Positions 1 to 23,358 of a DNA stretch of 24,558 bases are shown in pieces (the stretch's first letter is position 1; each line of letters begins with the position of its first letter). The notes beneath the pieces were generated by a model. The model made no database searches, had not been told where the DNA came from, and saw nothing but the letters and a program-made list of their open reading frames with translations. Source of the stretch: a virus; UHGV virus genome UHGV-0105381, one strand, 5' to 3'. Both the position numbers and the translations under genes were made by a program.

Positions 1-8
1 GGGGCATA

Positions 9-3384: not shown

Positions 3385-5150
<1,766 letters not shown>

Positions 5151-5269
5151 TGGAGCACCTGTGTTGTTCTGAGGTGAGCATATCACCTCTGTTCAGGTGG
5201 CCAAATTCAGTGTGCCACTTCAGCCACTTCATGAACTAGACGGCAGTTGAGTCGCTTGGGTGGTGATTA

Positions 5270-5503
5270 CTATTCTGCTTCAAACTCAGAAATTAGTTGA
5301 TGAACACGTTCAGTATATGATGGGTTAGAACCTAGAAACTCTTCCACTGTCTGAATGGTTTCATCATCCTCCCATTCAAAATGGCTCACAGGTGACGAAT
5401 GACCCGTCCTGACTTGGTAGGAGCCATTGTCCAATTTGTCTAGGAAGATATAAGTTTCATTATCATGACCCGTATTTCGGTAAAAAATTTGCTTTGAGTT
5501 CAT
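5270..5503 (-). CDS. Small acidic hypothetical protein, divergent from the terminase small subunit gene
   Basis: 77-aa ORF with a GAGGAT RBS about 8 nt upstream of the ATG; no recognised motif. Confidence 0.45.
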   Translation of the reverse strand: MNSKQIFYRNTGHDNETYIFLDKLDNGSYQVRTGHSSPVSHFEWEDDETIQTVEEFLGSNPSYTERVHQLISEFEAE

Positions 5504-5527
5504 TAAAGAAATCCTCTAGAGAAAACT

Positions 5528-6055
5528 ATGGCACTCACCGACAAGCAAGAAATGTTCTGTCGCGAGTACCTCATCGATTTAAACGCCACGCAAGCGGCTA
5601 TTCGGGCGGGGTACAGCGCAAAAACAGCCAACCGTACCGCATCCGAAAACCTGTCAAAACCTGACATACAATTCAGAATCTCCGAATTGAAAGCACAACG
5701 CAATGACTCTGTTGGAATAAATGCAGAATACGTACTTAATCGCCTTCTTGAAATCGACCAGATGGATGTGCTCGACATTCTCCTGCAAAACGGTGAGTTA
5801 AAGCCCATTAAAGACTGGCCTAAAGTATGGCGCACAACGCTATCAGGAATGGATGTCGTGGAGATGGTATCCGCAGATAGTTCCGCACTTCTGAAGAAAA
5901 TCAAATGGCCAGATAAGGTCAAAAACCTCGAACTTCTTGGTAAGCATGTTTCCGTTCAGGCATTTAAAGAACAAGCTTCTCATGAGCTAACCGGCAAAGA
6001 CGGCGGCGCAATCCAGATTGAAACATCACCGATGAGCACTCTATTCGGAAAATGA
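5528..6055 (+). CDS. Terminase small subunit (HTH-containing, Terminase_2-like)
   Basis: 175-aa ORF immediately upstream of, and overlapping, the large terminase; N-terminal KQEMFCREYLIDLNATQAAIRAGYS motif typical of small terminases. Confidence 0.85.
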   Translation: MALTDKQEMFCREYLIDLNATQAAIRAGYSAKTANRTASENLSKPDIQFRISELKAQRNDSVGINAEYVLNRLLEIDQMDVLDILLQNGELKPIKDWPKVWRTTLSGMDVVEMVSADSSALLKKIKWPDKVKNLELLGKHVSVQAFKEQASHELTGKDGGAIQIETSPMSTLFGK

Positions 6056-7467
6056 CCTCGATTAATCCTATCTTTGAACCGTTCATTGAGGCGCATCGCT
6101 ACAAAGTCGCCAAAGGCGGTCGAGGTAGCGGTAAGTCATGGGCAATTGCGAGGCTGCTTGTTGAAGCGGCGCGTCGGCAGCCTGTGCGCATCCTCTGTGC
6201 TCGTGAACTGCAAAACAGTATCAGCGATTCGGTAATCCGGTTGCTTGAAGACACCATCGAGCGGGAAGGGTATTCGGCTGAGTTTGAAATTCAGCGTTCA
6301 ATGATTCGTCATCTCGGAACGAATGCTGAATTCATGTTCTACGGCATCAAAAACAACCCGACGAAGATTAAATCGCTCGAAGGCATTGATATCTGCTGGG
6401 TGGAAGAAGCGGAAGCGGTAACGAAGGAATCATGGGATATCCTGATCCCAACCATCCGTAAGCCGTTCTCTGAAATATGGGTGAGCTTTAACCCGAAGAA
6501 CATCCTCGACGATACCTATCAGCGATTCGTCGTAAATCCTCCCGATGATATTTGCCTGCTGACGGTGAACTACACCGACAACCCGCACTTTCCTGAAGTT
6601 CTCCGTCTGGAGATGGAAGAGTGCAAACGCAGAAATCCGACACTGTATCGTCACATCTGGCTTGGTGAGCCAGTAAGCGCAAGTGATATGGCAATCATCA
6701 AACGTGAATGGCTTGAAGCCGCAACCGATGCGCACAAGAAACTCGGATGGAAAGCGAAAGGCGCGGTTGTCTCTGCGCATGACCCGTCAGATACAGGGCC
6801 AGATGCTAAAGGTTACGCATCGCGTCACGGTTCGGTGGTTAAGCGCATTGCCGAAGGTCTGCTGATGGACATCAACGAGGGTGCTGACTGGGCTACTTCG
6901 CTGGCGATTGAAGACGGCGCTGACCATTACCTGTGGGATGGTGATGGTGTTGGTGCCGGGCTACGCAGACAGACAACGGAAGCGTTCTCCGGTAAGAAAA
7001 TCACCGCCACGATGTTTAAGGGTAGTGAATCGCCATTCGATGAAGATGCGCCTTATCAGGCCGGAGCATGGGCTGATGAAGTCGTACAGGGCGACAACGT
7101 TCGCACTGTTGGCGATGTGTTCCGCAATAAGCGAGCGCAATTCTATTACGCACTGGCTGACAGGCTGTATCTGACATATCGGGCGGTTGTCCACGGTGAG
7201 TATGCAGACCCCGACGACATGCTGAGCTTCGACAAAGAAGCGATAGGCGAGAAGATGCTGGAGAAGCTGTTTGCAGAACTGACGCAGATTCAGCGCAAAT
7301 TCAATAATAACGGGAAGCTGGAGCTTATGACTAAGGTCGAAATGAAGCAGAAGCTCGGTATTCCATCTCCTAACCTGGCTGATGCGCTGATGATGTGTAT
7401 GCATTGCCCGGAGTCGGCTGCGCAACCCGACTATTCCAGTTACTCAATTCCTTGTGGTGTAGGTTGA
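6052..7467 (+). CDS. Terminase large subunit (ATPase/nuclease)
   Basis: 471-aa ORF with Walker A GGRGSGKS and Walker B-like ICWVEE; size and order match Sf6/P22-type large terminases (recalled). Confidence 0.95.
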   Translation: MTSINPIFEPFIEAHRYKVAKGGRGSGKSWAIARLLVEAARRQPVRILCARELQNSISDSVIRLLEDTIEREGYSAEFEIQRSMIRHLGTNAEFMFYGIKNNPTKIKSLEGIDICWVEEAEAVTKESWDILIPTIRKPFSEIWVSFNPKNILDDTYQRFVVNPPDDICLLTVNYTDNPHFPEVLRLEMEECKRRNPTLYRHIWLGEPVSASDMAIIKREWLEAATDAHKKLGWKAKGAVVSAHDPSDTGPDAKGYASRHGSVVKRIAEGLLMDINEGADWATSLAIEDGADHYLWDGDGVGAGLRRQTTEAFSGKKITATMFKGSESPFDEDAPYQAGAWADEVVQGDNVRTVGDVFRNKRAQFYYALADRLYLTYRAVVHGEYADPDDMLSFDKEAIGEKMLEKLFAELTQIQRKFNNNGKLELMTKVEMKQKLGIPSPNLADALMMCMHCPESAAQPDYSSYSIPCGVG

Positions 7468-7468
7468 T

Positions 7469-9667
7469 ATGGCAGAAAAAAAGATGACTGACTGGCATCG
7501 CAAGGTGCTGTGCAACTTTGATAATGCCTGGTCAGCAACGCAGGATATGCGTGAGCAGATTATTGAGGCTCAACGTTTCGTCCGGGTGTCCGGCGCACAG
7601 TGGGAAGGCAGCACAAACGCTGGTTACTCATTTGATGAAGGCAGGTTTGAGCATTACCCGCGCTTTGAACTGAATAAGATTGCCCGTGAATGTGATCGCA
7701 TCATTGGCGAGTATCGACAGAATCGCATCAGCGTTAAATTCAGGCCGAAGGACGATAAGGCATCGGAAGCGTTGGCCGAAAAGATGAACGGCAAATTCCG
7801 CGCTGACTATCAGGAAACATCCGGTGGCGAAGCGTGTGATAACGCATTTGATGATGCTGTAACGGGTGGATTCGGTTGTTTCCGCATGTGTGCCGATTAC
7901 GAAGATGAAATGGATCCGAGTAACGAGCAACGCCGTATAAGCCTTCTTCCTGTTTACGACCCAGCGACATGCGTCTTCTTTGATCAGGACAGCAAGCAAT
8001 ATGACCGCTCTGATGCTATGTGGGCTATGGAAATGTTCTCCATGACGCCCAAAGCGTTCGAGGCTGAATACCCTGATTCCATCGCGGCAAGCCTTTCTCG
8101 TGATGACACTGGCACTCAATATGACTGGTCAACGCCCGATGCCATCTATGTTGGACGCTACTACGAAGTTCGCATAGAGAAGGTGAAGCTCACGGCGTGG
8201 CGCAACCCTGTTAGCGGAGAAACGGCAATCTATGATGAAGAGCAAATCAAAGATGTTGTCGACGAGCTAACCGATGGCGCATTCGAACTGATTGGTGAGC
8301 GAACGGTGAAGAAACGCCGCGTTTATTGCGGCCTTCTGTCTGGCGCTGAATGGCTGGAAGAACCGAAGCGTATTCCGGGCGAACATATTCCTCTCATCCC
8401 GGTATATGGGCGTCGCTCATTTGTTGATAATCAGGAGCGAATCGAAGGCCACGCAGCAAAAGCGATGGATGCACAGCGTCTTGAGAACCTGATGGTTTCC
8501 ATGATTGCAGATAACGCTACTCAGGCTGGCGGTGATGGCATTCCTGTAGTTGATGTTGACATGATTCCTGGTCCTCTCGCCAATCATTGGGCGGAGCGCA
8601 ACAAAAAGCGCCCGGCGTTCCTGCCGATGGTAAGTCTGAAAAACAAAAACGGAGATATTACTGCGCAGGCTCAGGTCAGCAGTTATACACCTCCAACACA
8701 AATGCCTCCTGCTCTTGCCGGGCTATTACAGTACACCGGAACGGCTATTCAGCAAATTACAGGTGCGTCGCAGCTTGAGAACATGCCGAGCAACGTCGCT
8801 ACCGATACCGTTGATAGCATCTTTAACAGGATGGACACGCAGTCATATATCTACATGGACAACATGGCTAAATCCATGCGTCGCGCTGGCGTTGTGTGGC
8901 TTTCTATGGCGCGTGAGGTCTATGGCAGCGATACGCCAATGCGCATCGTTAATGAGGACGGCAGCGATGACGTGGCGCTGATGACTGGTGAAGTGGTTGA
9001 CCGTCAGACAGGGCAGGTTATCGCGCTTAACGACCTTTCGCAGGGTAACTATGAAGTGACTGTCGATGTCGGTCAGTCGTTCGCTACTCGCCGTGATGCA
9101 ACGGTTAAGTCGTTACTTTCCATGCTGGCACTTATCCCACCAGGAACGCCGAAGCACGACCTTGTATCGTCGATGATTCTCGACAATATGGACGGCGAAG
9201 GGATGGACGATCTTAAAGAATACAACCGCAATCAGTTGCTTCTGTCTGGAGTTATCAAGCCGAGAACACCAGAAGAACAGCAGATGGTTGAGCAGGCGAA
9301 ACAACAACAGGCCAGTCAGCCGGATCCGGCTATGGTTGCAGCGCAAGGTCAGCTTCTTGCTGGTCAGGCTGAATTGCAGAAAGCGCAGAACGAACAGGCA
9401 GCCATTCAGGTTAAAGCATTCCAGGCACAGACTGATGCTCAGGTTGCTGCGGCAAACGTTGTGAAAATCCTCGCATCTGCCGATAGCCAGCAGAAATCTG
9501 ATATCCGCGAGGCTCTGAAACTGCTCGGACAGTTCCAGCAACAGCAAGGAGACAATGCCCGTGCTGATGCAGAGCTTGTCCTGAAAAGTCAGGCGCAGGG
9601 ACATGCACAACGCATGGACATCAGCAGCATCCTGCAAAAATCAACTCAGCAACAACCACAGCAATAA
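7469..9667 (+). CDS. Portal protein (P22 gp1-like)
   Basis: 732-aa ORF; segments (KRRRVY, GEHIPLIPVYG, PEEQQ...QPDPAMVAAQGQLLAGQAELQKAQNEQ, ARADAELVLK...HAQRMDISSILQ) match recalled P22 portal including the C-terminal barrel region. Confidence 0.95.
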   Translation: MAEKKMTDWHRKVLCNFDNAWSATQDMREQIIEAQRFVRVSGAQWEGSTNAGYSFDEGRFEHYPRFELNKIARECDRIIGEYRQNRISVKFRPKDDKASEALAEKMNGKFRADYQETSGGEACDNAFDDAVTGGFGCFRMCADYEDEMDPSNEQRRISLLPVYDPATCVFFDQDSKQYDRSDAMWAMEMFSMTPKAFEAEYPDSIAASLSRDDTGTQYDWSTPDAIYVGRYYEVRIEKVKLTAWRNPVSGETAIYDEEQIKDVVDELTDGAFELIGERTVKKRRVYCGLLSGAEWLEEPKRIPGEHIPLIPVYGRRSFVDNQERIEGHAAKAMDAQRLENLMVSMIADNATQAGGDGIPVVDVDMIPGPLANHWAERNKKRPAFLPMVSLKNKNGDITAQAQVSSYTPPTQMPPALAGLLQYTGTAIQQITGASQLENMPSNVATDTVDSIFNRMDTQSYIYMDNMAKSMRRAGVVWLSMAREVYGSDTPMRIVNEDGSDDVALMTGEVVDRQTGQVIALNDLSQGNYEVTVDVGQSFATRRDATVKSLLSMLALIPPGTPKHDLVSSMILDNMDGEGMDDLKEYNRNQLLLSGVIKPRTPEEQQMVEQAKQQQASQPDPAMVAAQGQLLAGQAELQKAQNEQAAIQVKAFQAQTDAQVAAANVVKILASADSQQKSDIREALKLLGQFQQQQGDNARADAELVLKSQAQGHAQRMDISSILQKSTQQQPQQ

Positions 9668-9757
9668 TTAACCCATAACGTGCAATGGCTGTCTTTATGA
9701 GGCCTGGCACCCTATTGCCTTCCGATGGGCTGAACATCGAGTAAACAGGGGTAACAA

Positions 9758-10651: not shown

Positions 10652-10669
10652 CCTATCGGAGCATTAAGC

Positions 10670-11923: not shown

Positions 11924-11929
11924 TTTTGG

Positions 11930-11950: not shown

Positions 11951-11964
11951 ATTGGGAGAAGACA

Positions 11965-12153
11965 ATGGCACGAACAATGCTCTATAAGCCTGGCAACATG
12001 ATCACCTGTGGTCAGTTTGCTGTCGATTACATCATTGTTGATGACGAAGAAGTTAAATCTCACCTGAAAAAAGGTTGGGTAAAAACTCCTGAAGAAACCG
12101 CAACGAAGCAAAAAGTGGCTAAGGCGGAAGAAGATGGCGAAAACGAAGGGTGA
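11965..12153 (+). CDS. Small hypothetical protein between coat and gp4-like genes (ORF-track alternative start 11926)
   Basis: ATG at 11965 preceded by GGGAGAAG RBS; overlaps the gp4-like start by about 20 nt; no motif recognised. Confidence 0.4.
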   Translation: MARTMLYKPGNMITCGQFAVDYIIVDDEEVKSHLKKGWVKTPEETATKQKVAKAEEDGENEG

Positions 12154-12595
12154 TCTCGTTCTAAAGGCTTTACGAAAAGCCGGGCTGTATTCCAGTGCCA
12201 CGTTGACAGATGCTGACCCTCAGGCAATTGAAGATGCCATTAATGACCTCGAAGACATGATGGCAGCATGGCAGGCTAAAGGTATCGAGCTTGGGTATCA
12301 GTTTGCTGATACAGAAAACGGCATCATGCCGTTACCGGACGATGATTCAGGTATCCCTGCATGGGCAAATGATGGCGTCGCTTTGAAACTCGCTGTGCAA
12401 GTGTGCATGGATAACGTCATTCAGCCGTCAGACGCTCTCCTTACCGCTGCTGACAGTGCATATCAGACAATCTGTATCGCTTTAACCAAAATACCACCAC
12501 TTGAGCGGCGAAATGACATGCCTCGCGGTAGTGGTAACAAAAGCGCGTTTACGTGGAATCGGTTTTACATCGAGAAAGATGATCCGAGTACGTGA
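12134..12595 (+). CDS. Tail accessory / head-completion protein (P22 gp4-like)
   Basis: 153-aa ORF; KTKGDLV..ALRK.G...ATLTD..PQ...DA.DDLE.MMA.W and C-terminal GSGN motifs match recalled P22 gp4. Confidence 0.85.
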   Translation: MAKTKGDLVLKALRKAGLYSSATLTDADPQAIEDAINDLEDMMAAWQAKGIELGYQFADTENGIMPLPDDDSGIPAWANDGVALKLAVQVCMDNVIQPSDALLTAADSAYQTICIALTKIPPLERRNDMPRGSGNKSAFTWNRFYIEKDDPST

Positions 12596-12604
12596 GGTGA
12601 ATAA

Positions 12605-14023
12605 ATGCCGATTCAGCAACTTCCGCTTATGAAAGGTGTCGGCAAAGACTTTCGAAACGCCGACTATATCGACTATCTGCCAGTGAATATGTTGGCTACA
12701 CCCAAAGAAATCCTGAACAGCAGCGGATATCTTCGCTCATTCCCGGGCATTGCCAAACGTTCTGATGTGAACGGCGTATCGCGAGGCGTCGAGTACAACA
12801 TGGCGCAGAATGCTGTTTATCGCGTGTGTGGTGGCAAACTGTATAAGGGCGAAAGTGAGGTCGGTGATGTTGCCGGAAGTGGTCGCGTATCAATGGCGCA
12901 TGGTCGAACATCACAGGCGGTAGGCGTTAACGGGCAACTGGTCGAATACCGCTATGATGGCACGGTTAAAACCGTCTCAAACTGGCCTGCAGACAGCGGG
13001 TTTACGCAGTATGAGTTAGGTTCGGTTCGCGACATTACGCGTTTACGTGGGCGTTATGCGTGGTCAAAAGACGGCACTGATTCATGGTTTATCACTGACC
13101 TTGAAGACGAATCGCATCCTGACCGTTACAGCGCACAATATCGTGCCGAGTCTCAGCCGGACGGCATCATCGGTATCGGGACATGGCGAGACTTCATCGT
13201 CTGCTTTGGTTCATCGACTATTGAATATTTCTCCCTTACTGGCGCAACCACCGTTGGTGCTGCTTTGTATGTCGCACAGCCATCACTGATGGTGCAAAAA
13301 GGCATCGCCGGGACTTACTGCAAAACGCCGTTTGCTGATTCTTATGCATTCATCAGCAATCCGGCAACAGGTGCGCCGTCTGTATACATCATCGGCTCCG
13401 GTCAGGTGTTACCAATCGCCAGCGCGAGCATTGAGAAAATCCTCCGCTCCTACACTGCTGATGAACTGGCTGATGGCGTGATGGAATCGTTGCGGTTTGA
13501 TGCTCATGAGTTGCTGATTATTCACCTGCCGCGCCATGTACTCGTGTACGACGCATCTTCAAGCGCTAATGGTCCGCAATGGTGTGTGCTGAAAACAGGC
13601 CTGTATGACGATGTGTACCGCGCTATCGACTTCATTTACGAAGGCAATCAGATAACGTGCGGCGATAAGCTGGAATCGGTTACCGGTAAATTGCAGTTCG
13701 ATATCAGCAGCCAGTACGACAAGCAACAGGAACACCTGCTGTTTACTCCATTGTTCAAAGCGGATAACGCAAGAGTGTTTGACCTTGAAGTTGAATCGTC
13801 AACTGGTGTTGCGCAGTACGCTGACCGCCTGTTCCTCTCTGCTACCACTGACGGCATCAATTACGGTCGTGAGCAGATGATTGAGCAGAATGAACCGTTT
13901 GTTTACGACAAACGCGTTTTGTGGAAGCGAGTCGGGCGCATCAGGAAAAATGTCGGCTTCAAATTGCGCGTTATCACGAAGTCACCTGTCACTCTGTCTG
14001 GTTGCCAGATAAGGATTGAGTAA
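12605..14023 (+). CDS. Tail accessory protein (P22 gp10-like)
   Basis: 472-aa ORF, the same length as P22 gp10 and in the syntenic position between gp4 and gp26 homologues. Confidence 0.8.
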
Positions 14024-14724
14024 TGGCTGATTCGAATCTCAACACCCCTGTTATTGTGCAGGCGACGCGGCTCGATACATCAATCCTTCCACGCAATATA
14101 TTCAGCCAGTCTTACCTGTTGTATGTCATTAATCAGGGGGCTGATGTCGGCGCAATTGCCGGGAAGGCAAATCAGGCTGGTCAGGGCGCTTACGATGCCC
14201 AGGTAAAAAACGATGAACAGGATGTCGAACTGGCTGATCACGACGCAAGAATCACCGCAAACACAAAAGCGATAAATCTCCTTGAGGTCAGGTTAACAAC
14301 CGCCGAAGGGAAGATAGTCATACTACGTAGCGATGTTGATTACTTGCTGGATGAGGTTATCGATATTCAGGCGCATCTGGTCACTGTTGACCAAATGCTG
14401 GATGACGTAGAAAACGATGTCTCTGGCATTAAGAGTGATTACGTATCGAAAACCGTAACCGAATCGCAGTCTCTTGCGTCACCGCTGGATGTAAAAACAT
14501 CATATTCAGTTGATGGAATTCAGGTTGTTGGAGCAAGAAATACCGGATGGACTGCAGCCACAGGTACACCTCTTTTGGGCTCATTCAACGCTAACCAGTC
14601 ATACACAGTCGGCACTACGTACACACAATCCGAAGTCGCAGCCCTCGCTACAGGGTTGCAGCAGGCGCGGCAGCGTATTCTGGCGCTTGAAACGGCACTT
14701 AGATTACATGGGCTGATTGACTGA
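14023..14724 (+). CDS. Tail needle / cell-envelope-penetrating protein (P22 gp26-like)
   Basis: 233-aa ORF; N-terminus [65 protein letters not shown] and C-terminus [13 protein letters not shown] closely match recalled P22 gp26. Confidence 0.9.
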
Positions 14725-15179
14725 TGATTACATTCAAACCAACGCGAAACATCGACCTGATAGAAGCCGTAGGAAATCACCCTGACATTATCGCCGGGAG
14801 CAACAACGGTGATGGATACGACTACAAACCTGATTACCGTTACTTTGAGGTGAACGTGCACGGGCAGTTCGGCGGAATTGTTTACTATCAGGAGATTCAG
14901 CCGCTAACCTTTGATTGCCACGCCATGTACCTGCCAGAGATTCGCGGCTTCAGCAAGGAAATCGGGCTGGCGTTCTGGCGATACATTCTGACTAACACCA
15001 CCGTTCAGTGCGTCACATCGTTCGCTGCGCGCAAATTCCGCCACGGGCAGATGTACTGCGCAATGATTGGCCTTAAGCGTGTAGGGACCATCAAGAAATA
15101 CTTCAAAGGCGTGGATGACGTGACGTTTTACAGCGCCACACGCGAAGAACTAATCGACTTCCTGAATCACAGGAGATAG
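14724..15179 (+). CDS. Virion-associated protein in the P22 gp14 position
   Basis: 151-aa ORF, start overlapping the gp26-like stop; assignment by synteny only. Confidence 0.55.
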   Translation: MITFKPTRNIDLIEAVGNHPDIIAGSNNGDGYDYKPDYRYFEVNVHGQFGGIVYYQEIQPLTFDCHAMYLPEIRGFSKEIGLAFWRYILTNTTVQCVTSFAARKFRHGQMYCAMIGLKRVGTIKKYFKGVDDVTFYSATREELIDFLNHRR

Positions 15180-15181
15180 CC

Positions 15182-15874
15182 ATGTTATATGCATTTAAGC
15201 TGGGCAGAAAACTGCGCGGCGAGGAACCTTATTACCCTGAAAAAGGCGGGAAAGGTGGCAGTTCTGATAAAAGCGCAAAGTATGCAGCAGAAGCTCAGAA
15301 GTATGCCGCAGACCTGCAAAATCAGCAGTGGCAGACGATCATGAAAAACCTTGCTCCGTTCACGCCTCTTGCGGAGCAGTATGTTAACCAGCTTCAGAAC
15401 ATTTCCAGTTTAGAAGGTCAGGGGCAGGCACTTAATCAGTATTACAACTCTCAGCAGTATAAAGACCTTGCAGGTCAGGCTCGTTACCAGAGTCTTGCTG
15501 CTGCGGAGGCGACTGGCGGACTTGGTTCGACAGCTACAAGCAATCAACTGGCCACGATTGCCCCGACTCTCGGTCAGTCGTGGTTGTCGAACCAGATGAG
15601 CAACTACAACAATCTGGCAAACATTGGCCTTGGTGCGCTGCAAGGTCAGGCGAACGCCGGGCAGACATACGCCAACAACATGAGCAGCATTGCGCAGCAA
15701 AGCGCAGCACTTGCCGCTGCTAACGCCAATAAACCATCAGGCCTTCAGACAGCAATTAGCGGTGGCACGTCTGGTGCGATTGCCGGTGCAGGTCTTGCCA
15801 GCCTTTTGGGAACATCAACGCCTTGGGGCGCTGGCATTGGTGCTGGTATCGGATTGCTTGGCTCGTTGTTTTAA
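15182..15874 (+). CDS. Ejection (DNA-transfer) protein, P22 gp7-like
   Basis: 230-aa ORF, syntenic; N-terminus MLYAF.LGRKLRGEEP.YPEKGGKGGS as recalled for gp7-type proteins; Gly/Ala-rich C-terminus. Confidence 0.75.
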   Translation: MLYAFKLGRKLRGEEPYYPEKGGKGGSSDKSAKYAAEAQKYAADLQNQQWQTIMKNLAPFTPLAEQYVNQLQNISSLEGQGQALNQYYNSQQYKDLAGQARYQSLAAAEATGGLGSTATSNQLATIAPTLGQSWLSNQMSNYNNLANIGLGALQGQANAGQTYANNMSSIAQQSAALAAANANKPSGLQTAISGGTSGAIAGAGLASLLGTSTPWGAGIGAGIGLLGSLF

Positions 15875-15883
15875 GGGGTAATA

Positions 15884-17179
15884 ATGGCTACTTGGCAAGG
15901 ATCAAATGGCGGATTGTTGGCTGGTATCGGCGGCGTCAACTCAAACGCTCCGAGCGTAAATGACATCGGCAATACGCTTCAGCTTATCAGGCAGAACAAT
16001 GATATTGAGCGTTCAGGCGCTAACAATGTTGGGCTGACTGCTTTGCAAGGCCTTTCAGGTATTGCAGGAGTGTTTCAGCAGGAAAAGCAGGCTCAGCGGC
16101 AGAAAGAATTTCAGCAGGCGTACGCTAATGCTTATACGTCTGGTGATCGCGGTGCTTTGCGTCAGTTGGCTACTCAATATCCAGACCAGATTGAATCCGT
16201 TCGTAAAGGCATGGGATTCATTGATGAAGACCAGCGCAATTCCATCGGTACCTTAGCGGCTGGCGCACGCCTTGCGTCATCGTCTCCAGAAGCAATGCAA
16301 TCATGGCTGCAAAACAACGCCAAGGAACTGACTCGCGTCGGTGTTGACCCTAATAACGTTGCTCAGATGTATCAGCAGAATCCTTCAGGATTTGGTGAGT
16401 TTGTTGATCACCTTGGAATGGCTGCTCTTGGTCCGATTGATTACTTCAATGTTCAGGACAAGATGGCTGGTCGTGAGATTGACCGAGGCAGGCTGGCAGA
16501 GACAATCCGCAGCAATCAGGCAGGAGAAGCACTAACAGCTCGAGGTCAGGACATCCAGATACGTGGACAGAACATCAGCGCACAGAATGCTGCTCTTTCC
16601 CGAGAAATACAAAGAGCAGAATTACAAGAAAAGGCTCTGGACAGACAGATAGCCAGAGAAAGCAATCAGTTAAAGCTTGAAGAGCTAAAACAGAAACAGG
16701 CAGATGTTCGGCAAAAGGCTGACATAGCCCGCGCTGACAGGCAGGCCGCCGCTCAGGGTGCAGTTGATACGTTCAGCACCGCGCTTGATTCTCTCAACGA
16801 GATAGAGCAAAGCCCCGGCCTTTCAAAAGCAGTAGGAATTCGCTCAGCGTTTCCGACAGTTCCTGGCTCTGATGCGGCTAACTTTGAAGCAAGGCTCGAC
16901 ACCTTTAAAGCTCAAACATTCCTTCCTATGGTGCAGTCCCTGAAGGGTATGGGCGCTCTTTCAGATGCAGAGGGTAAAAAATTATCCGATGCGGTTGGTG
17001 CCCTAAGCCCCAAAATGAGTGAAAAGGCTTTTCGTGACTCTATCGGAAAGATTAGAAATCAGCTTGAAAGCAAGTTGAGCACTGTTAAAAAACAGTTTGA
17101 TTATCAGGAGCCGGTGCAGAATATGCCAGGGCAACAATCTACTACTGGCAGTAACTTTTCTTCGCTATGGGGTGATTAA
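15884..17179 (+). CDS. Ejection (DNA-transfer) protein, P22 gp20-like
   Basis: 431-aa ORF, syntenic; coiled-coil-rich central region. Confidence 0.7.
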   Translation: MATWQGSNGGLLAGIGGVNSNAPSVNDIGNTLQLIRQNNDIERSGANNVGLTALQGLSGIAGVFQQEKQAQRQKEFQQAYANAYTSGDRGALRQLATQYPDQIESVRKGMGFIDEDQRNSIGTLAAGARLASSSPEAMQSWLQNNAKELTRVGVDPNNVAQMYQQNPSGFGEFVDHLGMAALGPIDYFNVQDKMAGREIDRGRLAETIRSNQAGEALTARGQDIQIRGQNISAQNAALSREIQRAELQEKALDRQIARESNQLKLEELKQKQADVRQKADIARADRQAAAQGAVDTFSTALDSLNEIEQSPGLSKAVGIRSAFPTVPGSDAANFEARLDTFKAQTFLPMVQSLKGMGALSDAEGKKLSDAVGALSPKMSEKAFRDSIGKIRNQLESKLSTVKKQFDYQEPVQNMPGQQSTTGSNFSSLWGD

Positions 17180-19176
17180 TGGCTAAAGCATGGAAAGATG
17201 TTATCGCCTCTCCACAGTATCAGGCGTTAGCACCAGAACAAAAAGCGCAGGCTCAGGAGCAATACTTCAATGAAGTCGTTGCCCCGCAAGCCGGAGAAAA
17301 TGCAGAGCAGGCTAAGCAAGCTTTCTATGCTGCCTATCCATTGCCATCTGTGCAGCCAGTGGAGACACAACAACCAGTATCACAGCAACAACCACAGCAA
17401 AGTGGATTTATGTCGGATCTTGGTGAAGCCGTGAAAGAAACTGGTCGCGGACTGGTGCAGGCTGGCGTGAACGTGGCAAACATACCTGCATCAGTTGCCG
17501 ATGCTGTAACAAGCGCGGCGGCTTGGGCTGGCGGTAAACTCGGAATTGGCGATGGGACATATCACCCAGCGCCACGAGTAACAACGCAGGGATTAGAGCA
17601 GGACTTTGGCCTTCAGCAAGGCGCGCTGACTCCACAAACTACAGAGGGCAGGGTATTTGCTGAGGCATTGCCTTACCTCACTCCTGCTGGCATTGAGAGA
17701 GCGGCAACACAGGCACCAACACTCGCTGGTAGAATCGCTCAGGGTGCAACTCGCCTTCTCGCTGAAAACGCAGTCGGGTCACTTGCTGCAAATAGTGCGA
17801 AAGATGATGCGGAAGCACTCGCTACCGATTTAGGCATTGGCGTTCTGGCTGGCGGCGCTATTAACGCTGCCGGACGTGGATTAGGCGCTGCTTATCGTGG
17901 CGTTCGTGGTGCTATTGCACCAGAAGCGCAGCAAGCTATCAGATTTGCAGAGCGTGAAGGAGTGCCTCTGCACACCACAGACCTGTTACAGCCTAGTTCC
18001 CGCGTCGGAAAAATGGCGCAAACGACAGCAGAAAATATCCCCCTGGCTGGCACAAGCGGAATGAGAGCAACGCAACAGGAAGCGAGAAGCCAGTTGGTTC
18101 AGAGATTTGCTGATAAATTCGGTGAGTATGATCCAGCGGTTGTTATTGACAGCCTTAAAGCGAAAACATCAGGAATTCGTCGCGCTGCAGGAAATCGACT
18201 GGAGCAGGTTCAGAATGCTATGGCGGGAATAAACATTCAGCCTGCAAGAGCAATTCAGCAGATTGATACAGAAATATCTAACCTGCAGAAGCTTGGTAAG
18301 GTTGCTGATAACGAGACTATTTCAAAACTTCAGTCCTATCGTGATGAGCTTGTTCGCAATGCTGGTCCTGATGGTCCGGTAAATCTGGATTTGAAGCAAT
18401 TAAGCGATCTGCGCAGCCAGTTCAGAATGGACGTGAAGGGTGAGCGACCAGTGTTACCAAACCGTTCCGATGCTGCCATTCAGCGCGTTTACAAGGCAAT
18501 GACCGACGATATCAATGGTGCCATTGGTCAGAATCTTGGCAACGATACTCTCCGTAAATATCAGCAGGCCAATGCCGTCTACGCTGACGAAGCCGCGAAA
18601 CTAAAGAATACCAGGCTGAAGAATGTTCTCATGAAAGGCGATCTGACGCCGGAAGTTGTCAACAACATGCTATTCAGCAAGAACAAATCGGAAATTAAGA
18701 CGCTGTATAACTCAGTTGGTCGTGTTGGCAGGGCGCAAATGCGCAATGGCATCATTGGAAAGGCGATGGAGAAATCTGGCGGATCCCCTGACCAGTTCCT
18801 TCGGCAGCTTAACATCCTGCAAAACCAGACTGGCATCACATTTAAGGGGCAGGACGCTGCTTATCTGAAAGGATTAAAAAACTACCTGCAATCTACGCAG
18901 CAGGCTGCAAAAGCGGCAGTAACAACACCCACAGGGCAGCAAACTATCCCGTTCATTATTGGGTATGGGACGGCAATGAACCCTGCGACAACTGGCGCAG
19001 CAGTAAGCTACGGACTTCTTACTCGCGCCTATGAGAGCGAGCCATTCAGAAATGCAATGCTCAGAATGGCAAACACCCCACGCGGATCAACAGCGTTTGA
19101 GAAAGCCATGCAGCAGGCACAAAAGGCAATTAACGCTATGACGCAGGGGGCTAAGTCTGATGCGTTGTCAGAATAG
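17179..19176 (+). CDS. Ejection (DNA-transfer) protein, P22 gp16-like
   Basis: 665-aa ORF, syntenic, Ala/Gly-rich; last gene of the contiguous rightward structural operon. Confidence 0.7.
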   Translation: MAKAWKDVIASPQYQALAPEQKAQAQEQYFNEVVAPQAGENAEQAKQAFYAAYPLPSVQPVETQQPVSQQQPQQSGFMSDLGEAVKETGRGLVQAGVNVANIPASVADAVTSAAAWAGGKLGIGDGTYHPAPRVTTQGLEQDFGLQQGALTPQTTEGRVFAEALPYLTPAGIERAATQAPTLAGRIAQGATRLLAENAVGSLAANSAKDDAEALATDLGIGVLAGGAINAAGRGLGAAYRGVRGAIAPEAQQAIRFAEREGVPLHTTDLLQPSSRVGKMAQTTAENIPLAGTSGMRATQQEARSQLVQRFADKFGEYDPAVVIDSLKAKTSGIRRAAGNRLEQVQNAMAGINIQPARAIQQIDTEISNLQKLGKVADNETISKLQSYRDELVRNAGPDGPVNLDLKQLSDLRSQFRMDVKGERPVLPNRSDAAIQRVYKAMTDDINGAIGQNLGNDTLRKYQQANAVYADEAAKLKNTRLKNVLMKGDLTPEVVNNMLFSKNKSEIKTLYNSVGRVGRAQMRNGIIGKAMEKSGGSPDQFLRQLNILQNQTGITFKGQDAAYLKGLKNYLQSTQQAAKAAVTTPTGQQTIPFIIGYGTAMNPATTGAAVSYGLLTRAYESEPFRNAMLRMANTPRGSTAFEKAMQQAQKAINAMTQGAKSDALSE

Positions 19177-19269
19177 CTTTTCAAACACCAGGAACGTGCA
19201 AAAACCAAATATGTAGAACGCGAGGTTTATCGTATCCCTCTGCATAGGCGATGATACATTTGCTGATTG

Positions 19270-19755
19270 TTATCTGATGTTACTGCTACTGTTGCATGTG
19301 ACTGTATTTCCAAACCCTGAATTGCAGTTTGTGTAAGTTTCAACTCGTGTTGGATAGGGTTGAGTTATAACAGGCTGTCTCGCTTTTTGCTCGATCGCTT
19401 GCATTGTGTTTACAGCCTGATAATTCAATAAAGCCTGCTGGAATGCTTGGCTTTGCGCTATTTGTTGGGCTTGTTCTTGGCTTTGTAGTTGAACATAAAG
19501 ATTCTGAAGCTCAAGTCTTGCCTGCGCGTCACTTATCTTGCCATCATCGACACCTTGCCCGAGCATCTTCGCAGCAAGGACATATAACTTAGGTGTTGGT
19601 GCTGATGCCATGCGTGAGTCGTTCTTCACGCTAGCATCAAGGCAATTAGCCATATCGCTAAGCTTTGGATAGCGTTGTTCGCAATTTGCCTGATAGTCGC
19701 TAACCTTTGCGCACCCTGCCAGCAGAAGCGGGATAATTAACAGTGATTTTTTCAT
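19270..19755 (-). CDS. Lipoprotein of unknown function (moron in the sieA position)
   Basis: Start at MKKSLLIIPLLLAGC with lipobox LAGC; AAGGAGAG RBS upstream; the ORF-track N-terminal extension is probably not used. The +2 residue is Ala, which by the +2 rule predicts outer-membrane sorting. Confidence 0.7.
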   Translation of the reverse strand: MKKSLLIIPLLLAGCAKVSDYQANCEQRYPKLSDMANCLDASVKNDSRMASAPTPKLYVLAAKMLGQGVDDGKISDAQARLELQNLYVQLQSQEQAQQIAQSQAFQQALLNYQAVNTMQAIEQKARQPVITQPYPTRVETYTNCNSGFGNTVTCNSSSNIR

Positions 19756-19889
19756 ATGATTAACTCTCCTTATCTTTGCCATCATGGCACTGTTGGGTGT
19801 AAATGAGTTATTAACTCAATCGACAATATCTTCACGAAAATACTTTTTATTATTAAGATCTTTCTGATTCTAACAAAACGGAAAGTAAT

Positions 19890-20309
19890 ATGAAGAGGAT
19901 TATCGGCGTCGTTGCTGGCGCTATATTGTTATCTGGGTGCGCAACTATTGTTGGTGATGAAACGCAGCTTGTGCAAGTGAACAGCAATCCTTCTGGCGCG
20001 AGCTTTAAGGTAAAAGATGAATCTGGTGTGATTGTTGCGCAAGGTAAGACTCCACAAGGTGTAACACTCGCCAAGTCAGATGGTAGCTATTTTGGCAAAA
20101 AGAGCTACCAGATCACTATGGAGAAGGATGGGTACGAACCAGTTACCCTGCCAATCAAAGCCAATGCTAATGGTTGGTATATTGGTGGGAACCTTGTGTT
20201 TGGTGGGTTAATTGGTTGGCTTGCTGTAGATCCATTTAATGGTGGGATGTATACCTTGAAGCCTAAAGAGGCAAATGCATCCCTTATACCGTCCACAAAG
20301 CAAGACTAA
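19890..20309 (+). CDS. Lipoprotein with PEGA-like domain (moron in the sieA position)
   Basis: 139-aa ORF; signal peptide with lipobox LSGC; SNPSGASFKV...GKTPQGVTL...YQITMEKDGYEP resembles the PEGA domain pattern; Gly-rich hydrophobic C-terminal segment. Confidence 0.7.
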   Translation: MKRIIGVVAGAILLSGCATIVGDETQLVQVNSNPSGASFKVKDESGVIVAQGKTPQGVTLAKSDGSYFGKKSYQITMEKDGYEPVTLPIKANANGWYIGGNLVFGGLIGWLAVDPFNGGMYTLKPKEANASLIPSTKQD

Positions 20310-20316
20310 TAAATGG

Positions 20317-20340
20317 AACCCACCATCAGGTGGGTTTTTT
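20317..20340 (+). terminator. Rho-independent terminator (AACCCACC-atca-GGTGGGTT + TTTT) between the convergent lipoprotein and mnt genes
   Basis: Perfect 8-bp stem followed by a T run, read from sequence; overlaps the 3' end of mnt on the other strand. Confidence 0.8.
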
Positions 20341-20577
20341 GTACAAATCCTTCAGCGTATCAAACACCATCTTCTTAACAAGTTCAGACTGCTCATCAGC
20401 GATGCGTTCCGCATCGTCTCGATAGCCTGAAATTTTGGATGGCCTTGATACAGCATCAGTCACTATCTGAACTAATTCTGAATTAAGAGAGCGGCCATTG
20501 GATTTGGCTCGCTGTTTTAGTTTTTCCTTTAATTCGTAAGGTAGCCGCAGATTAAATTGCGGGTCATCTCTTCCCAT
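20326..20577 (-). CDS. mnt: Mnt repressor (ribbon-helix-helix, P22 immI-type)
   Basis: 83-aa ORF; DDP.FN.R.P.E..EKLK.RA..NGRS.NSEL.QIV.DA.S.PS...GYR.DAER.ADEQSELVKKMVFDTLKDLYKK matches recalled P22 Mnt almost throughout. Confidence 0.9.
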   Translation of the reverse strand: MGRDDPQFNLRLPYELKEKLKQRAKSNGRSLNSELVQIVTDAVSRPSKISGYRDDAERIADEQSELVKKMVFDTLKDLYKKPT

Positions 20578-20641
20578 TCTTGATGCCTCGCTCTTGTGAG
20601 TGGATCGGCATCTTATTATCTGCTGGTTGCATCCTCAATAA

Positions 20642-20654
20642 GACCACGGTGGTC
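20642..20654. promoter_or_regulatory. Candidate Mnt operator: perfect 13-bp palindrome GACCACGGTGGTC
   Basis: Palindrome read from sequence in the mnt/tailspike divergent intergenic region; the core CCACGGTGG resembles the recalled P22 mnt operator (GTCCACGGTGGAC-like). Confidence 0.55.
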
Positions 20655-20712
20655 GTATTTTTTGATTAATAATGAATCACTGCGGCCATTCCTTGTATCT
20701 GGAGCAAATTAA

Positions 20713-23358
20713 ATGACAGACATTACAGCCAATGTTGTAGTGAGTATGCCTTCGCAACTCTTCACTATGGCTCGTTCTTTTAAAGCCGTAGCCAATGGCA
20801 AAATTTATATCGGTAAAATTGACACTGACCCGGTAAATCCTGAAAACCAGATTCAGGTCTATGTTGAGAACGAAGATGGTTCTCACGTTCCTGTTGCACA
20901 GCCAATCGTCATCAATGCCGCAGGGTATCCAGTATATAACGGACAGATTGCCAAATTCGTTACCGTGCAAGGCCATTCTATGGCTGTTTATGATGCGTAT
21001 GGTGCACAGCAGTTCTATTTTCCTAATGTGCTGAAGTATGACCCGGATCAGTTTAAACAAAAAGTATTATCAAATGATATGCTAAATATGTCTCCTCTTT
21101 ATTTTGGAGCTAAGGGGGATGGGATTAGCGATGATACTGAAGCATTTGTCGCGTTGGAAATGGATATAAAAAATAGGGTTATTGATTTAAGTGGAAGAGC
21201 ATTTTTTGTTACTAAAAGTTTTATTGGAAATAGCTATATAAATGGTTCTTTTATTCGTGATGGCAGTAAACGAATTGCGATTGGTGATCTTAAATTAAGA
21301 GATAAAAGAGAGCCATTGATATTTTCCGGAATGCCAAAAGTATATAACACCAGACACACGTTGCGCAGAACTGAAGGTGCGGGTGGTTTATATGCGGTCA
21401 TTCAGGGGTGTTGTTATGATGAAATTAACGACAAGATTTTTACTTTATCATCTACCACAGCATACGGTTATTGCATTAATGCCTTTGACGTGACGAATTC
21501 TGGTGAACTAGGAAGATACGACAGAACCCGTTCTACTGAACTTGGGCATCAGGGGCTTGGATTGCATCATAATCCTGATGGTACTGTCGTGCTGTGGACA
21601 TCGAAGCCTTATGGAACCGATGCCGCCAATCAATGTATTTCGATGGAAAATATATTGAGTTACACAGGGACAACCAACGGAGTATCTGAAGGTTTTATCA
21701 CCTGGAAGTTGTTCCCCTATGATGGAATGAGCGCAAGCTCTACTCCAACTGTATCAAGTTGTGAAAACTATCTACTTGCCAAGAAAATTTCATCGGATGG
21801 AATTACCTGCACGGTTCGTGTTTTCGACATAGTCAGCATGTGGAATAACAGAGCTCATAAAACTGATTATAGTGATGATTATTTAGTTGAGTTTAGCTAT
21901 CAAAAACCATCACAAGAAGCATTTACCCAATCAATTGCTTGCGATGGGGCATACATTTACATACTTGAGTCACATACGTATGTTGGCATGACTAATTATA
22001 TTTACGTATTTGACTTAACAGGCAGGTTTATTGAGCGAGTAGATATTTCAACTGTTGGTGATGATGAAGCAAAATCTGACAGTACAGGAACTCCTGTTTA
22101 TAAAGAGCCTGAGTCCCTAACAGTAATTAGAACGGAGAGTGGGTATGTTTTAACGCTGGGGATATGCACATATAAAGGAGTTGCTGAGAACGGGAAAAAT
22201 GTATATCTGTTTGATATAGGCAGGTCTGGTTCGGTAGTGCAAAGCAAAGCAAGCCGTTCTGTATCCAGTAATACTGGTCTTCATAGTTCTGGCTCCCCGG
22301 AGTTCAAATATGGAGTAAGGGAGTACAATGATACTTTTCACTGGATAGTTTGGCCAACAAGAAAGGGTATTCAAACTAACCGGGATAACCCTATATTGTT
22401 TCTTGATGGCGGAATTACTGGTGGAATGCAGTTAGCTTCAAACGGCACGGAAGGGATGAGCAACTCATGGGTTTCCCGGCATCAGTCAGACACCGCAGAA
22501 GGACCAAGAGCAATAATGTATAAGTCTCGCTCTGGTGTTGTATCAACTGATAATTTTGGAGCTCTGCAGACAGGGGATGTATTGGGTACTCATGTATGGG
22601 CCGGTGATACAGGTAGTAAGGCTGTGCAATGCGCACACATTAAATGCGTCACAAGAGGTAATCCTTCCGGAGACAATATCCCGGTTGCTTTCTACTTTGG
22701 AACCATGGGAGAGAGTGACGGCTTGCGTGACAGATGGGTATTAACAGAATTAGGTCATTTTCGACCATCAGGTTCAAATCTTTATGATATTGGTACACAG
22801 TCGAATACTGTCAGAAACCTGTATATAAATAATAGCCCCATTGTAACCAGCGACAGAAATTATAAGCAGGATGAAGCTTCATTATCTGATGCAGAACTAC
22901 GGGTTGGAATGGCTATTTACCCGCTGATAAAAAAATTCAGAATGAAGGATGCTGTAAAAGAAAAAGGCTTGTCAGCGCGTGAGCATATCGGTGTAATTGC
23001 GCAAGATATACAATCCATCTTTGAATCTGAGGGGCTTGATGCATTTTCTTATGGGGTTCTTTGCTATGAAGAGTGGGATGATGAGTATGAGAAAGTCTAT
23101 GCAACAAGAAATGTGACCAGAAAAATTTTAATTGATGAAGAGTCTGGTCAGTATGATGAAATCACAGAGGAAGAAGAGTATGAAACTGGTGAAGTAAGGT
23201 TAATTATGGAATCAGGAAGAAAATTATCAGTGCGCTATGACGAGTTAATGTTTCTGGCAATGAGCGCACTATATCATCACCATGAGCAGGATATTGCCAA
23301 TATCACATCAAAGATTAATAATCTGGAAAAATTATTAAAGTTAACACTAAATGGTTGA
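20713..23358 (+). CDS. Mosaic tailspike: P22-type N-terminal head-binding domain, pectate-lyase-like beta-helix receptor-binding domain, C-terminal intramolecular chaperone (peptidase S74-like) domain
   Basis: 881-aa ORF; aa 1-114 ([11 protein letters not shown]...[33 protein letters not shown]...[12 protein letters not shown]...NVLKYDPDQ) match recalled P22 gp9; [14 protein letters not shown] follows; C-terminus has an SDAELR...GVIAQDIQ autoproteolytic chaperone-like region. Nucleotide composition turns AT-rich after about nt 21050. Confidence 0.9.

Follow-up and report, generated by a model that had tools for sequence, protein, structure and literature searches.

The complete virion module of a P22-like Escherichia coli prophage as a probable remnant of very recent IS911-driven truncation

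Genes and features of the window

The window, i.e., the whole stretch of 24,558 nucleotides analyzed here (virus genome UHGV-0105381), carries a colinear set of P22-like (Sf6/Gally-type) virion genes on the + strand, running from terS to the tailspike. These encode the terminase small subunit (terS, 175 aa, 5528-6055, Terminase_2), the terminase large subunit (terL, 471 aa, 6052-7467, Terminase_3), the portal protein (732 aa, 7469-9667, Pfam P22_portal), the scaffold (297 aa, 9758-10651) and the coat protein (417 aa, 10670-11923, Pfam P22_CoatProtein), followed by a block at 11965..15179 that starts with a 62-aa ORF between coat and gp4, continues with gp4 (153 aa, 12134-12595), gp10 (472 aa, 12605-14023) and the tail needle gp26 (233 aa, 14023-14724), and ends with gp14 (151 aa). 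The ejection proteins gp7 (230 aa), gp20 (431 aa) and gp16 (665 aa; 17179-19176) occupy 15182..19176, and the 881-aa tailspike, with a P22 head-binding domain and a C-terminal Peptidase_S74 chaperone domain, is encoded at 20713-23358. All 13 virion genes (5528-23358) are uninterrupted ORFs, each matching its expected P22-type family end to end (PHROG and Pfam), and the stops and starts of these ORFs overlap or abut as usual. In these respects, the sequence-only reading, which had described full-length genes from terS to the tailspike with intact overlaps and had cited the sizes of gp10, gp26 and the portal, was accurate, and the start coordinate that it gave for the module, 5223, proved to be exactly the first base beyond an IS911 copy (3974-5222). 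An ORF of 77 aa with unassigned function (5270..5503, - strand) normally precedes terS in this phage type; in complete relatives, it is found between an 82-aa gene and terS.

Genes for holin, lysozyme, Rz, Q, O/P-type replication proteins, c2/cro and phage int/xis were found nowhere in the window. With immC, replication, Q/late promoter, lysis and int/xis genes absent, the window does not represent a complete inducible P22-like prophage; the early, Q and lysis functions missing here are all present in relatives (L020, L022, L024, L016). The earlier claim that the module comes without lysis, replication or immunity genes thus holds for lysis and replication, but not for immunity, as a Mnt/Arc-type immI repressor (Pfam Arc and Repressor_Mnt) is encoded at 20326-20577 on the - strand. 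It is part of an immI-like region (19270..20577) that also includes accessory ORFs of 161/171 aa (19270-19785, - strand) and 139 aa (19890-20309, + strand), for which no match to defence systems (PADLOC) or named families (NCBIfam) was obtained.

Downstream of the tailspike, the - strand encodes a GT2-family glycosyltransferase domain (23405..24520; 371 aa when read from an internal GTG), which is the 3' part of a glycosyltransferase gene of about 440 aa whose 5' end lies beyond the window; full-length relatives comprise 429-455 aa and have a conserved N-terminal leader in common. The right end of the window (24558) coincides with the end of the source contig and falls inside a tetranucleotide microsatellite, (TGGC)n = (GCCA)n, the start of which is seen at 24530..24558 (- strand) within the glycosyltransferase coding region. 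Across genomes, the tract varies from 4 to 70 units, and leader and glycosyltransferase domain are in frame only if the unit number is divisible by 3; with a tetranucleotide unit, two of three tract lengths are therefore out of frame. An in-frame tract was found only in L042 (12 units, 442 aa), and full-length homologues with 0-2 repeat units keep the leader. The tract thereby combines the features of a simple-sequence-repeat contingency locus, namely an in-gene repeat, variable unit numbers and a frame shift. The right end as a whole (Mnt, tailspike and (GCCA)n-bearing glycosyltransferase) is kept in every remnant examined and is probably the part with a host-level function, i.e., surface-polysaccharide modification.

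The left part of the window (50..3973, + strand) does not consist of phage early genes, but of a P4-type integrase island at tRNA-Arg (argW), as assigned by Pfam and PHROG. It comprises int (50-1336), a 246-aa ORF (1329-2069), AlpA (2226-2417), a 63-aa ORF (2466-2657), HTH_17 (2739-2933), a 128-aa ORF (2930-3316) and, starting at 3385, the N-terminal part of a rolling-circle-type Rep that is cut by IS911 at codon 196, compared with 350 aa for the uninterrupted protein. The island is 100% identical to that of E. coli GMF054, where Rep is intact and followed by genes for an HNH endonuclease and a resolvase and by csc/dsd genes. Intact islands are present at a coverage of at least 80% in 214 complete genomes, and the three intact copies examined contain no structural genes. 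With Rep interrupted by the IS and intact copies free of structural genes, the locus does not show the native linkage of int, alpA and rep with hijacking or capsid genes that is typical of a satellite. When sought, neither a phage att core nor, in the island, a secondary att site emerged; the only matches were chance 8-mers.

IS911 and its two junctions

The IS element (IS3 family, 3974..5222, - strand) is 1,249 bp long, has the ends TGAAGTGG...CCACTTCA and carries orfA (4848-5186, - strand, HTH_Tnp_1) and orfB (3982-4821, - strand, rve). It shows the hallmarks of IS911, with a length of about 1,250 bp, TG...CA inverted-repeat ends, an orfA/orfB transposase and a target duplication of 3-4 bp, and the same element is annotated as IS911 in matching genomes. 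The copy is 100% identical to the IS in L019, and its transposase ORF matches IS-rich Shigella-like genomes only. The mechanism of IS911 has been described (PMC2909936).

At the left junction, the window reads cccgAAA directly before the IS, and L056 provides the matching other side, with the IS directly followed by AAActaagtt. Combined, the two reveal a 3-bp target duplication, AAA; read in this way, the left junction is the original IS911 insertion into Rep. On the phage side, there is no target duplication, and the right junction is therefore regarded as secondary, marking either the endpoint of a deletion or what is left of the tip of a second IS copy. Here, an 8-bp filler (GCCACTTC, 5223..5230), which together with the next A duplicates the terminal 9 bp at the right end of the IS, is followed by phage sequence that restarts at 5231 beside an IR-like motif, TGAACTAG; intact phages have cctttggatg directly followed by atgaactag at this site. 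We conclude that IS911 is the agent of prophage truncation. Neither of the two IS junctions had a match in 5,426 complete E. coli genomes, and the right one was likewise missing from the JGI metagenome and GTDB genome collections. The HNH gene 3' of Rep was looked up for a reciprocal junction, and its representative P0009 displayed the intact island only. An IS in E. coli PK6 was considered as the same insertion upstream of terS, but was rejected, as it is ISEc52 (IS3-family, 93% identical) at another position in another, argW-type prophage.

The argW island (1-3973) and the virion module might have been joined erroneously during assembly, through the 1.25-kb IS. This would concern the left neighbor only and not the nature of the module, which would still occupy torS/torT with int-xis-...-IS911 in front of it, as is the case in L019, and Rep would carry a simple IS911 insertion of its own. 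We consider such a mis-join somewhat unlikely, albeit with an appreciable chance of being true. In the chromosome of the clone (GMF054), torS/T is found 1.4 Mb upstream of argW, both having the same orientation, so that an adjacency of the truncated rep and the late genes with torT on the right would amount to a circle or duplication junction rather than to a deletion or inversion compatible with viability. In L056, Rep does contain a canonical IS911 insertion with AAA duplication, one MEGAHIT contig (L015) stops 127 bp into the IS, and the truncated Rep protein occurs in metagenome assemblies only, never in isolates. On the other hand, a SPAdes contig (NODE_168) and a MEGAHIT contig (k113_9502) from different samples follow the same path at 100% identity. 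For De Bruijn assemblers, a repeated IS is normally a break point rather than a stretch that they traverse. As routes to a real join, single or double inversion, excision plus reintegration, tandem duplication and cointegrate formation were modeled and discarded: each viable route leaves at least two identical IS copies, a result at odds with the uninterrupted path that both assemblers took through the element. A local inversion or deletion in a tandem argW array was rejected as well, as the late operon of argW-type P22-like prophages points to argW and the phage in the window is of the torS/T type at 100% identity. Given the chromosome order of the clone, the join between island and phage is topologically odd.

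Relatives and graded truncations

Complete prophages of the window's type (Gally/Sf6-like) are located between torS and torT, a known prophage site occupied by the P22-like phage Gally (PMC9928086, PMC6814406), and Gally is among the nucleotide matches to the window. Positions 5231-17467 (12,237 bp) are 100.000% identical to L019 and L021, both IS-deleted, and 99.992% identical (one SNP in 12,237 bp) to L020, a complete prophage in which cII-O-DnaB-nin-Q-holin-lysozyme-Rz are present. Positions 13405-24558 are 99.97% identical (3 SNPs in 11,154 bp) to L007, a prophage with a complete left half (= L016). In coding sequence, the remnant departs from the complete phages at two points only, both of them nonsynonymous changes, which is too few to give dN/dS any power. 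The gp10 SNP A13880, a nonsynonymous and lineage-specific change, is common only to IS-truncated relatives, and all 24 contigs read with the window's gp10 variant (24/24) are truncated forms. These identities strongly support the view, put forward earlier as one of two options, that the early region was lost very recently.

A prophage that is complete but rearranged, with early and lysis genes elsewhere in the genome (beyond the right end, in a circularly permuted insertion or across an inversion), appears improbable to us. Such an arrangement would be suggested by the window stopping at a contig end, by int and early genes coming after the tailspike/glycosyltransferase region on the circular phage map, and by IS junctions without a common target duplication, which are a sign of rearrangement. 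However, k113_9502, a sister contig of 331 kb, matches window positions 1-24023 at 100% identity and, being the contig from which the gene content to the right of 24558 in this strain was derived, would place torT-torR-torCAD, i.e., the native right prophage end, directly after the glycosyltransferase gene. Also at odds with a rearranged prophage, the window's gp10 allele occurs in IS-truncated forms only, and the closest relatives, L019 and L021, are devoid of the whole stretch from the early-left genes to the lysozyme gene; at torS, a small early-left remainder (int, xis and 4-5 ORFs) may have survived.

The flanks of GMF054 are 99.98-100% identical to window-type contigs, which places them in one clone, and within this clone the same IS is found at graded positions. 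It abuts the lysozyme gene in L019, L039, L060 and L064, with opposite IS orientation in L021 and L057, and abuts position 5231 in the window, L014 and L033/L058. Further to the right, it abuts terL at 6193 (L062) and 6248 (L061), where terS and part of terL are gone, gp7 at 15386 in GMF054, where terS to gp14 are gone, and gp20 at 16645 in L043, where everything up to gp20 is gone; in L006, gp16 is frameshifted. As the same IS cuts into virion genes at nested positions in sister strains, the virion module is evidently not protected.

Expression of the late operon

At the end of Q, L020 has a site matching the sigma-70 consensus at 11 of 12 positions, which lies inside the interval deleted from the window, and no such site is present between the IS and terS in the window. 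With P_R' and Q lost, the late operon is most likely silent and, since the Q-utilization site and the lysis genes are gone as well, the remnant alone most likely cannot make or release particles. In lambda and P22, the Q protein acts in cis at P_R'; as this promoter is deleted here, the Q protein of a helper could not switch the operon on. The island genes upstream are all co-oriented with the late operon and only weak terminator-like sites were found, so that read-through from the island across the IS into the late operon is conceivable.

The second option raised by the sequence-only reading was that the virion module is kept by selection, be it as a GTA-like or tailocin-like device or as a module mobilized by, or lent to, a helper phage. 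This we consider very unlikely. The integrity of all 13 structural ORFs and the retention of the full module after early-region loss in several independent contigs (L019, L021, L057 and nine similar ones) would be in keeping with selection, but age alone (0-3 SNPs relative to complete phages) suffices to explain the former. Sister strains do contain disrupted homologues, which the reading itself had named as speaking against domestication, namely the IS911-truncated variants of the same clone lacking terS/terL, terS-gp14 or terS-gp20, along with the frameshifted gp16; the structural module is thus not kept intact across related strains, as would be expected of a GTA or domesticated module. Moreover, the deletion has taken the late promoter along with the Q site and the lysis genes, leaving the operon beyond the reach of a helper's Q. 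A tailocin would consist of a tail-only module, whereas terminase, portal, scaffold and coat genes are present here along with a short podovirus tail machine, and a podovirus head-plus-tailspike architecture is not known from any tailocin.

Provided that the join is real and that a helper phage, acting through AlpA, induces island transcription that reads across the IS, IS911 might have fused a complete but promoter-less P22-type packaging/capsid/tail module to the 3' side of a co-oriented int-alpA-rep' operon, giving rise to a newly formed satellite-like chimera that makes its own particles. We attach only the slightest probability to this idea; if true, the chimera would capture in nature one way in which capsid-forming satellites could originate.

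Discussion

Taken together, positions 5223-23358 are very probably the late half of a Gally/Sf6-type torS/torT prophage that was recently truncated by IS911, a case of ordinary decay that requires no selection. According to this scenario, IS911 would have inserted into the phage lysozyme gene in this lineage, and IS911-made deletions would then have taken the c2/cro, replication, nin, Q/late-promoter and lysis genes. The deletion endpoint of the window would by chance have come to lie 297 bp upstream of terS, so that every virion gene survived. With only 0-3 SNPs in 10-12 kb separating the remnant from complete prophages, the event is too recent for frameshifts to have accumulated, and intact ORFs are the null expectation. 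A simple deletion at torS/torT would have left torS-side phage DNA to the left of the IS; the flank observed there, Rep of the argW island, speaks against it.

A caution follows for similar loci, namely that an intact virion module without early genes does not point to domestication if live phages carry the identical sequence. The decisive test is the comparison of sister strains, which here revealed the graded IS911 truncations in one clone. The locus represents a clean natural time series in which an IS dismantles a prophage from one side while conversion genes persist at the other end.

Among known phages, the P22-like temperate podoviruses Gally (an LF82 prophage), Sf6 and CUS-3 agree with the window in the order and families of their virion genes, from terS/terL through gp16 to Mnt and tailspike, and Sf6, CUS-3, Gally and others share 95-96% nucleotide identity over 44-72% of the virion block. 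Compared with Gally, Sf6 and CUS-3, the window is devoid of the early-left, immC, replication, nin, Q and lysis regions and has a different cassette for the receptor-binding part of the tailspike and the downstream conversion gene. Likeness to capsid-forming PICIs and P4-like satellites is superficial: a P4-type integrase and AlpA are followed by packaging and capsid genes, but the adjacency was made by an IS that destroys the island Rep, and the module has a full tail machine plus tailspike and is identical to that of a bona fide phage.

The right end resembles neuO of prophage CUS-3 in that a gene for a polysaccharide-modifying enzyme with a short-repeat switch in its 5' coding region lies beside a P22-like tailspike gene; neuO has been described as a "mobile contingency locus" with a short tandem repeat in the 5' coding region (PMC3046976, PMC13001214). 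The two differ in the enzyme, a GT2 glycosyltransferase here versus the O-acetyltransferase of neuO, and in the repeat, which is a tetranucleotide (GCCA)n encoding (ASQP)n here and a heptanucleotide in neuO. With switching predicted from the repeat, the phase-variable glycosyltransferase may constitute a second phage-borne contingency locus in E. coli after neuO. As a decaying prophage, finally, the locus is akin to the IS-truncated cryptic prophages of E. coli (CPS-53/KpLE1 at argW and others in K-12), which are likewise remnants of IS insertion and deletion and keep morons, e.g., O-antigen-modifying genes, next to the attachment site. Relative to these K-12 elements, the remnant described here is far younger, near-identical to live phages and equipped with a complete virion module, and a graded series of further truncations is seen within one clone.

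An Intact Virion Module beside IS911

ORF calling combined with PHROG/Pfam searches divided the window (24,558 bp) into an argW island part, an IS911 element and phage DNA; a tRNA search of the whole window found none. Positions 50-3973 encode a P4-type tyrosine integrase (Arm-DNA-bind_3/Phage_int_M/Phage_integrase), AlpA, a pair of small HTH proteins, two ORFs of unknown function and the start (196 codons) of a rolling-circle-type Rep. This is followed on the minus strand by a 1,249-bp IS3-family element (3974-5222) with the ends TGAAGTGG...CCACTTCA, annotated as IS911 in matching genomes. From 5231 to the end, the phage DNA carries, in this order, a 77-aa ORF, terS, terL, portal, scaffold, coat, a 62-aa ORF, gp4, gp10, gp26, gp14, gp7, gp20, gp16, two accessory ORFs, a Mnt/Arc repressor, an 881-aa tailspike and, on the minus strand, a GT2 glycosyltransferase (GT).

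The virion genes are indeed full-length, as the sequence-only reading had noted: each occupies one uninterrupted reading frame that matches its PHROG/Pfam family from end to end, and the junctions are compact and overlapping, as in a late operon. The accompanying statement that lysis, replication and immunity genes are missing held for holin, endolysin, Rz, Q, replication genes and c2/cro, but not for immunity altogether, as 20326-20577 encodes a Mnt-type immI repressor. The ORF and PHROG/Pfam searches likewise found no phage int/xis gene in the window. Between gp16 and Mnt (19270-20309), where P22 has sieA, lie the two conserved accessory ORFs, of 161/171 aa (minus strand) and 139 aa (plus strand). 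The latter shows weak PEGA/transthyretin-like similarity, and PADLOC and NCBIfam scans of both gave no match; a role in superinfection exclusion is possible.

The argW island (L003, a locus of E. coli strain GMF054, 12050-19840; its truncated copy at window 50-3973) comprises int, a 246-aa ORF, AlpA, HTH, a 128-aa ORF, a 350-aa rolling-circle-type Rep, an HNH endonuclease and a resolvase. It matches 550 of the 5,426 complete E. coli genomes (214 at ≥80% coverage) and lacks structural genes, the candidates for its nature being a satellite or an integrative plasmid-like element.

A Near-Identical Prophage at torS/torT

The virion block belongs to the P22-like (Sf6/Gally-type) modules and shares 95-96% identity with Sf6, CUS-3, Gally and phages like them. 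Exact-protein look-ups with terL, the 77-aa ORF, gp10, tailspike and GT retrieved dozens of contigs in which the same prophage lies between torS and torT, a documented attachment site that holds a prophage in about 5% of E. coli strains and is also the site of the P22-like Gally (PMC9928086, PMC6814406). Complete prophages (L020, L022, L024, L018, L016/L007, L034-L036, L038) contain cII, O, DnaB, nin genes, Q, holin, lysozyme and Rz, then 50-aa, 82-aa and 77-aa ORFs, then terS.

Over window 5231-17467, the complete prophage L020 differs by 1 base in 12,237, and L019 (complete genome CP181872.1) and L021, both with IS-associated deletions, are 100.000% identical; L007 differs by 3 bases in 11,154 over window 13405-24558. 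Coding sequence is affected only by a nonsynonymous change in gp10 (A13880) and by a single amino-acid substitution in the tailspike. With 0-3 differences from complete or IS-deleted relatives over 11-12 kb, the proposed very recent loss of the early region is borne out. The gp10 allele of the window is confined to IS-associated forms, all 24 of the 24 contigs read being truncated.

IS911 and the Loss of the Early Region

In L019 and L021, a copy of IS911 lies inside the lysozyme gene of the phage; the DNA from a few early-left genes up to this copy is lost and the virion module is complete. The IS of the window is 100% identical to the L019 copy and differs from that of L021 by 1 base. Relative to L019, the window is without a further 1,343 bp, namely the truncated lysozyme gene, Rz and the 50-aa and 82-aa ORFs. 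The lysozyme insertions (L019 6588-7836, L021 6585-7836; also L057, L059 and L060) share an identical position with opposite orientations among strains and different left flanks, which suggests either repeated IS-mediated inversion/deletion or a strong insertion hot spot.

IS911 is reported to target sequences that resemble its own ends. In the window, the right end of the IS is directly followed by the 8-bp filler GCCACTTC (5223-5230), which together with the next base (A) duplicates the last 9 bp of the IS, and phage sequence restarts at 5231 beside TGAACTAG, a motif similar to the IS end TGAAGTGG. Judging from these bases, the filler looks like the leftover tip of a second IS copy, or it may be the footprint of an end-directed transposase attack or end-targeted IS911 insertion. 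IS911 moves by a copy-out/paste-in mechanism with 3-4 bp flanks (PMC2909936).

Nested Truncations within One Clone

E. coli GMF054 carries the same argW island at 100% identity, and its flanks are 99.98-100% identical to window-type contigs on the argW-left and tor sides alike, so that GMF054 and the window-type strains represent one clone. Within it, the IS–prophage junction lies in the lysozyme gene on the IS right-end side (L019, L039, L060 and L064; L006 inferred from contig geometry) or in the same gene with opposite IS orientation (L021, L057, L059), at 5231 (this window, L014 and L033/L058), in terL at 6193 (L062) or 6248 (L061 and 4 similar contigs), in gp7 at 15386 (GMF054, arranged as torS-'int-IS911-'gp7-gp20-gp16-...-GT-torT) and in gp20 at 16645 (L043). 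Other contigs break at 9958 in the scaffold gene (L063), 20303 (L045) and 21245 (L072). The window thus represents one step in a graded series, with an endpoint that happens to fall 297 bp upstream of terS. The suggestion of selection on the particle-forming module is contradicted by this series of truncations in sister strains; the virion module is unprotected in this clone. In L006 (15345-17343, equivalent to window 17179-19176), a single-base indel splits gp16 into ORFs of 313 and 362 aa in a remnant otherwise 99.98% identical, which may reflect an early inactivating mutation or else an error in sequencing.

Several other identities were considered for the block. It does not qualify as a complete prophage, for want of early and lysis genes, or as a GTA or domesticated module, since sister strains do not conserve it; head genes and a podovirus-type tail speak against a tailocin. 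Nor does it qualify as a satellite, the island Rep being destroyed by the IS and the intact island copies examined having no structural genes. The virion block represents prophage decay of an ordinary, well-understood kind, seen at a very early stage. Of more interest than the intact module itself are the nested series of IS911 deletions, the putatively phase-variable GT and the odd adjacency to argW.

An unrelated P22-like remnant at argW (L027, OY754443.1) retains only fragments of tailspike (228 aa) and gp16 (502 aa). This heavily eroded prophage surrounds a 255-aa fusion ORF (P0007; 10001-10768) in which the N-terminus of a Rad52-family phage recombinase is followed by island Rep residues 211-350, and P0007 occurs on contigs from 25 blocks of the collection. 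The fusion is a second, independent phage–island deletion at argW.

Expression Capacity of the Late Operon

In L020, an 11/12 sigma-70 consensus site (TTGACA-18-CATAAT) is found at the end of Q, the expected location of P_R'. The interval deleted in the window takes in the region of this site, Q and the lysis genes; a promoter scan from the IS to terS found no consensus promoter, and IS transposase transcription points away from terS. Q acts in cis at the late promoter in lambdoid phages and P22, and the Q protein of a helper phage would therefore be unable to activate the operon. We infer that the late operon of the window is silent. The upstream island genes are co-oriented with it, and only weak terminator-like sites occur within the IS.

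The Junction with the argW Island

The left flank of the IS reads '...cccgAAA' within the island Rep gene, and the JGI contig L056 starts inside the same IS, of which it has the last 55 bp, continues with 'AAActaagtt...' and then runs into the distal island in its normal form. Rep thus has a canonical IS911 insertion flanked by a 3-bp duplication, and this insertion is the parent of the left junction of the window. The ENA contig NODE_168_length_44747, found via the exact truncated Rep protein, matches window 1-14047 at 100% identity; by its geometry, 24558 is the last base of the source contig. The rep'-IS-77aa-terS join recurs at 100% identity over window 1-24023 in the independent MEGAHIT contig k113_9502 (L033/L058, ENA ERZ27333779; 330,977 bp). 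GT-anchored look-ups do not list this contig by name. Even loci with 13 of 17 exact proteins in common receive separate entries there, so that the contig must be grouped as 'similar' to L064, which would place torT-torR-torCAD after its GT.

On the GMF054 chromosome, torS/T and argW have the same orientation, with torS/T 1.4 Mb upstream, so that the order argW-island'–late genes–torT joins the end of this 1.4-Mb segment to its own start. An excised circle or a tandem duplication would produce such a junction, but a viable deletion or inversion would not. Two origins are conceivable for the join, namely a multi-step rearrangement in a rare subclone and an assembly artefact common to two pipelines. 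All IS-recombination routes that we constructed to a viable single-copy chromosome leave at least two identical IS copies; both assemblers traverse the IS without a break, and the truncated Rep protein is confined to six contigs, all from metagenomes, with no isolate genome encoding it. The conclusion on the virion module is unaffected by either origin.

The Retained Right End and Its Glycosyltransferase

Mnt, tailspike and GT at the torT end are kept in every remnant, the smallest included. Directly upstream of an internal GTG start of GT (24520) lies a (TGGC)n = (GCCA)n microsatellite (window 24530-24558, continuing past the window end; 29318-29599 in L026 of GMF054). The window stops seven units into this tract, which accounts for the end of the short-read contig at this point. 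The tract has 70.5 units in GMF054, and unit numbers across loci were 4, 10, 12, 14, 16, 20, 23, 25, 26, 31, 37 or 70. At the protein level, the repeat gives an (ASQP)n linker that connects the GT domain to a conserved leader of 52 aa; leader and domain are in frame when the unit number is divisible by 3. Only 12 units (L042) place the upstream ATG, ribosome-binding site and 52-codon leader in frame with the GT domain, yielding 442 aa.

Full-length GT homologues of 429-455 aa occur in E. coli, Leclercia, Campylobacter and other genera, and in the closest full-length relatives examined the conserved leader '...KFALDF' is followed by 0, 1 or 2 ASQP units; the forms of 371-376 aa carry the NCBI label 'partial'. 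The conserved leader and this label point to a translational phase-variation switch inside a real gene, and the repeat, as predicted from its sequence, looks like a phage-borne contingency locus. Such a putative switch would be the most plausible reason why the remnants are retained, with an analogue in neuO of the P22-like prophage CUS-3 (PMC3046976, PMC13001214).
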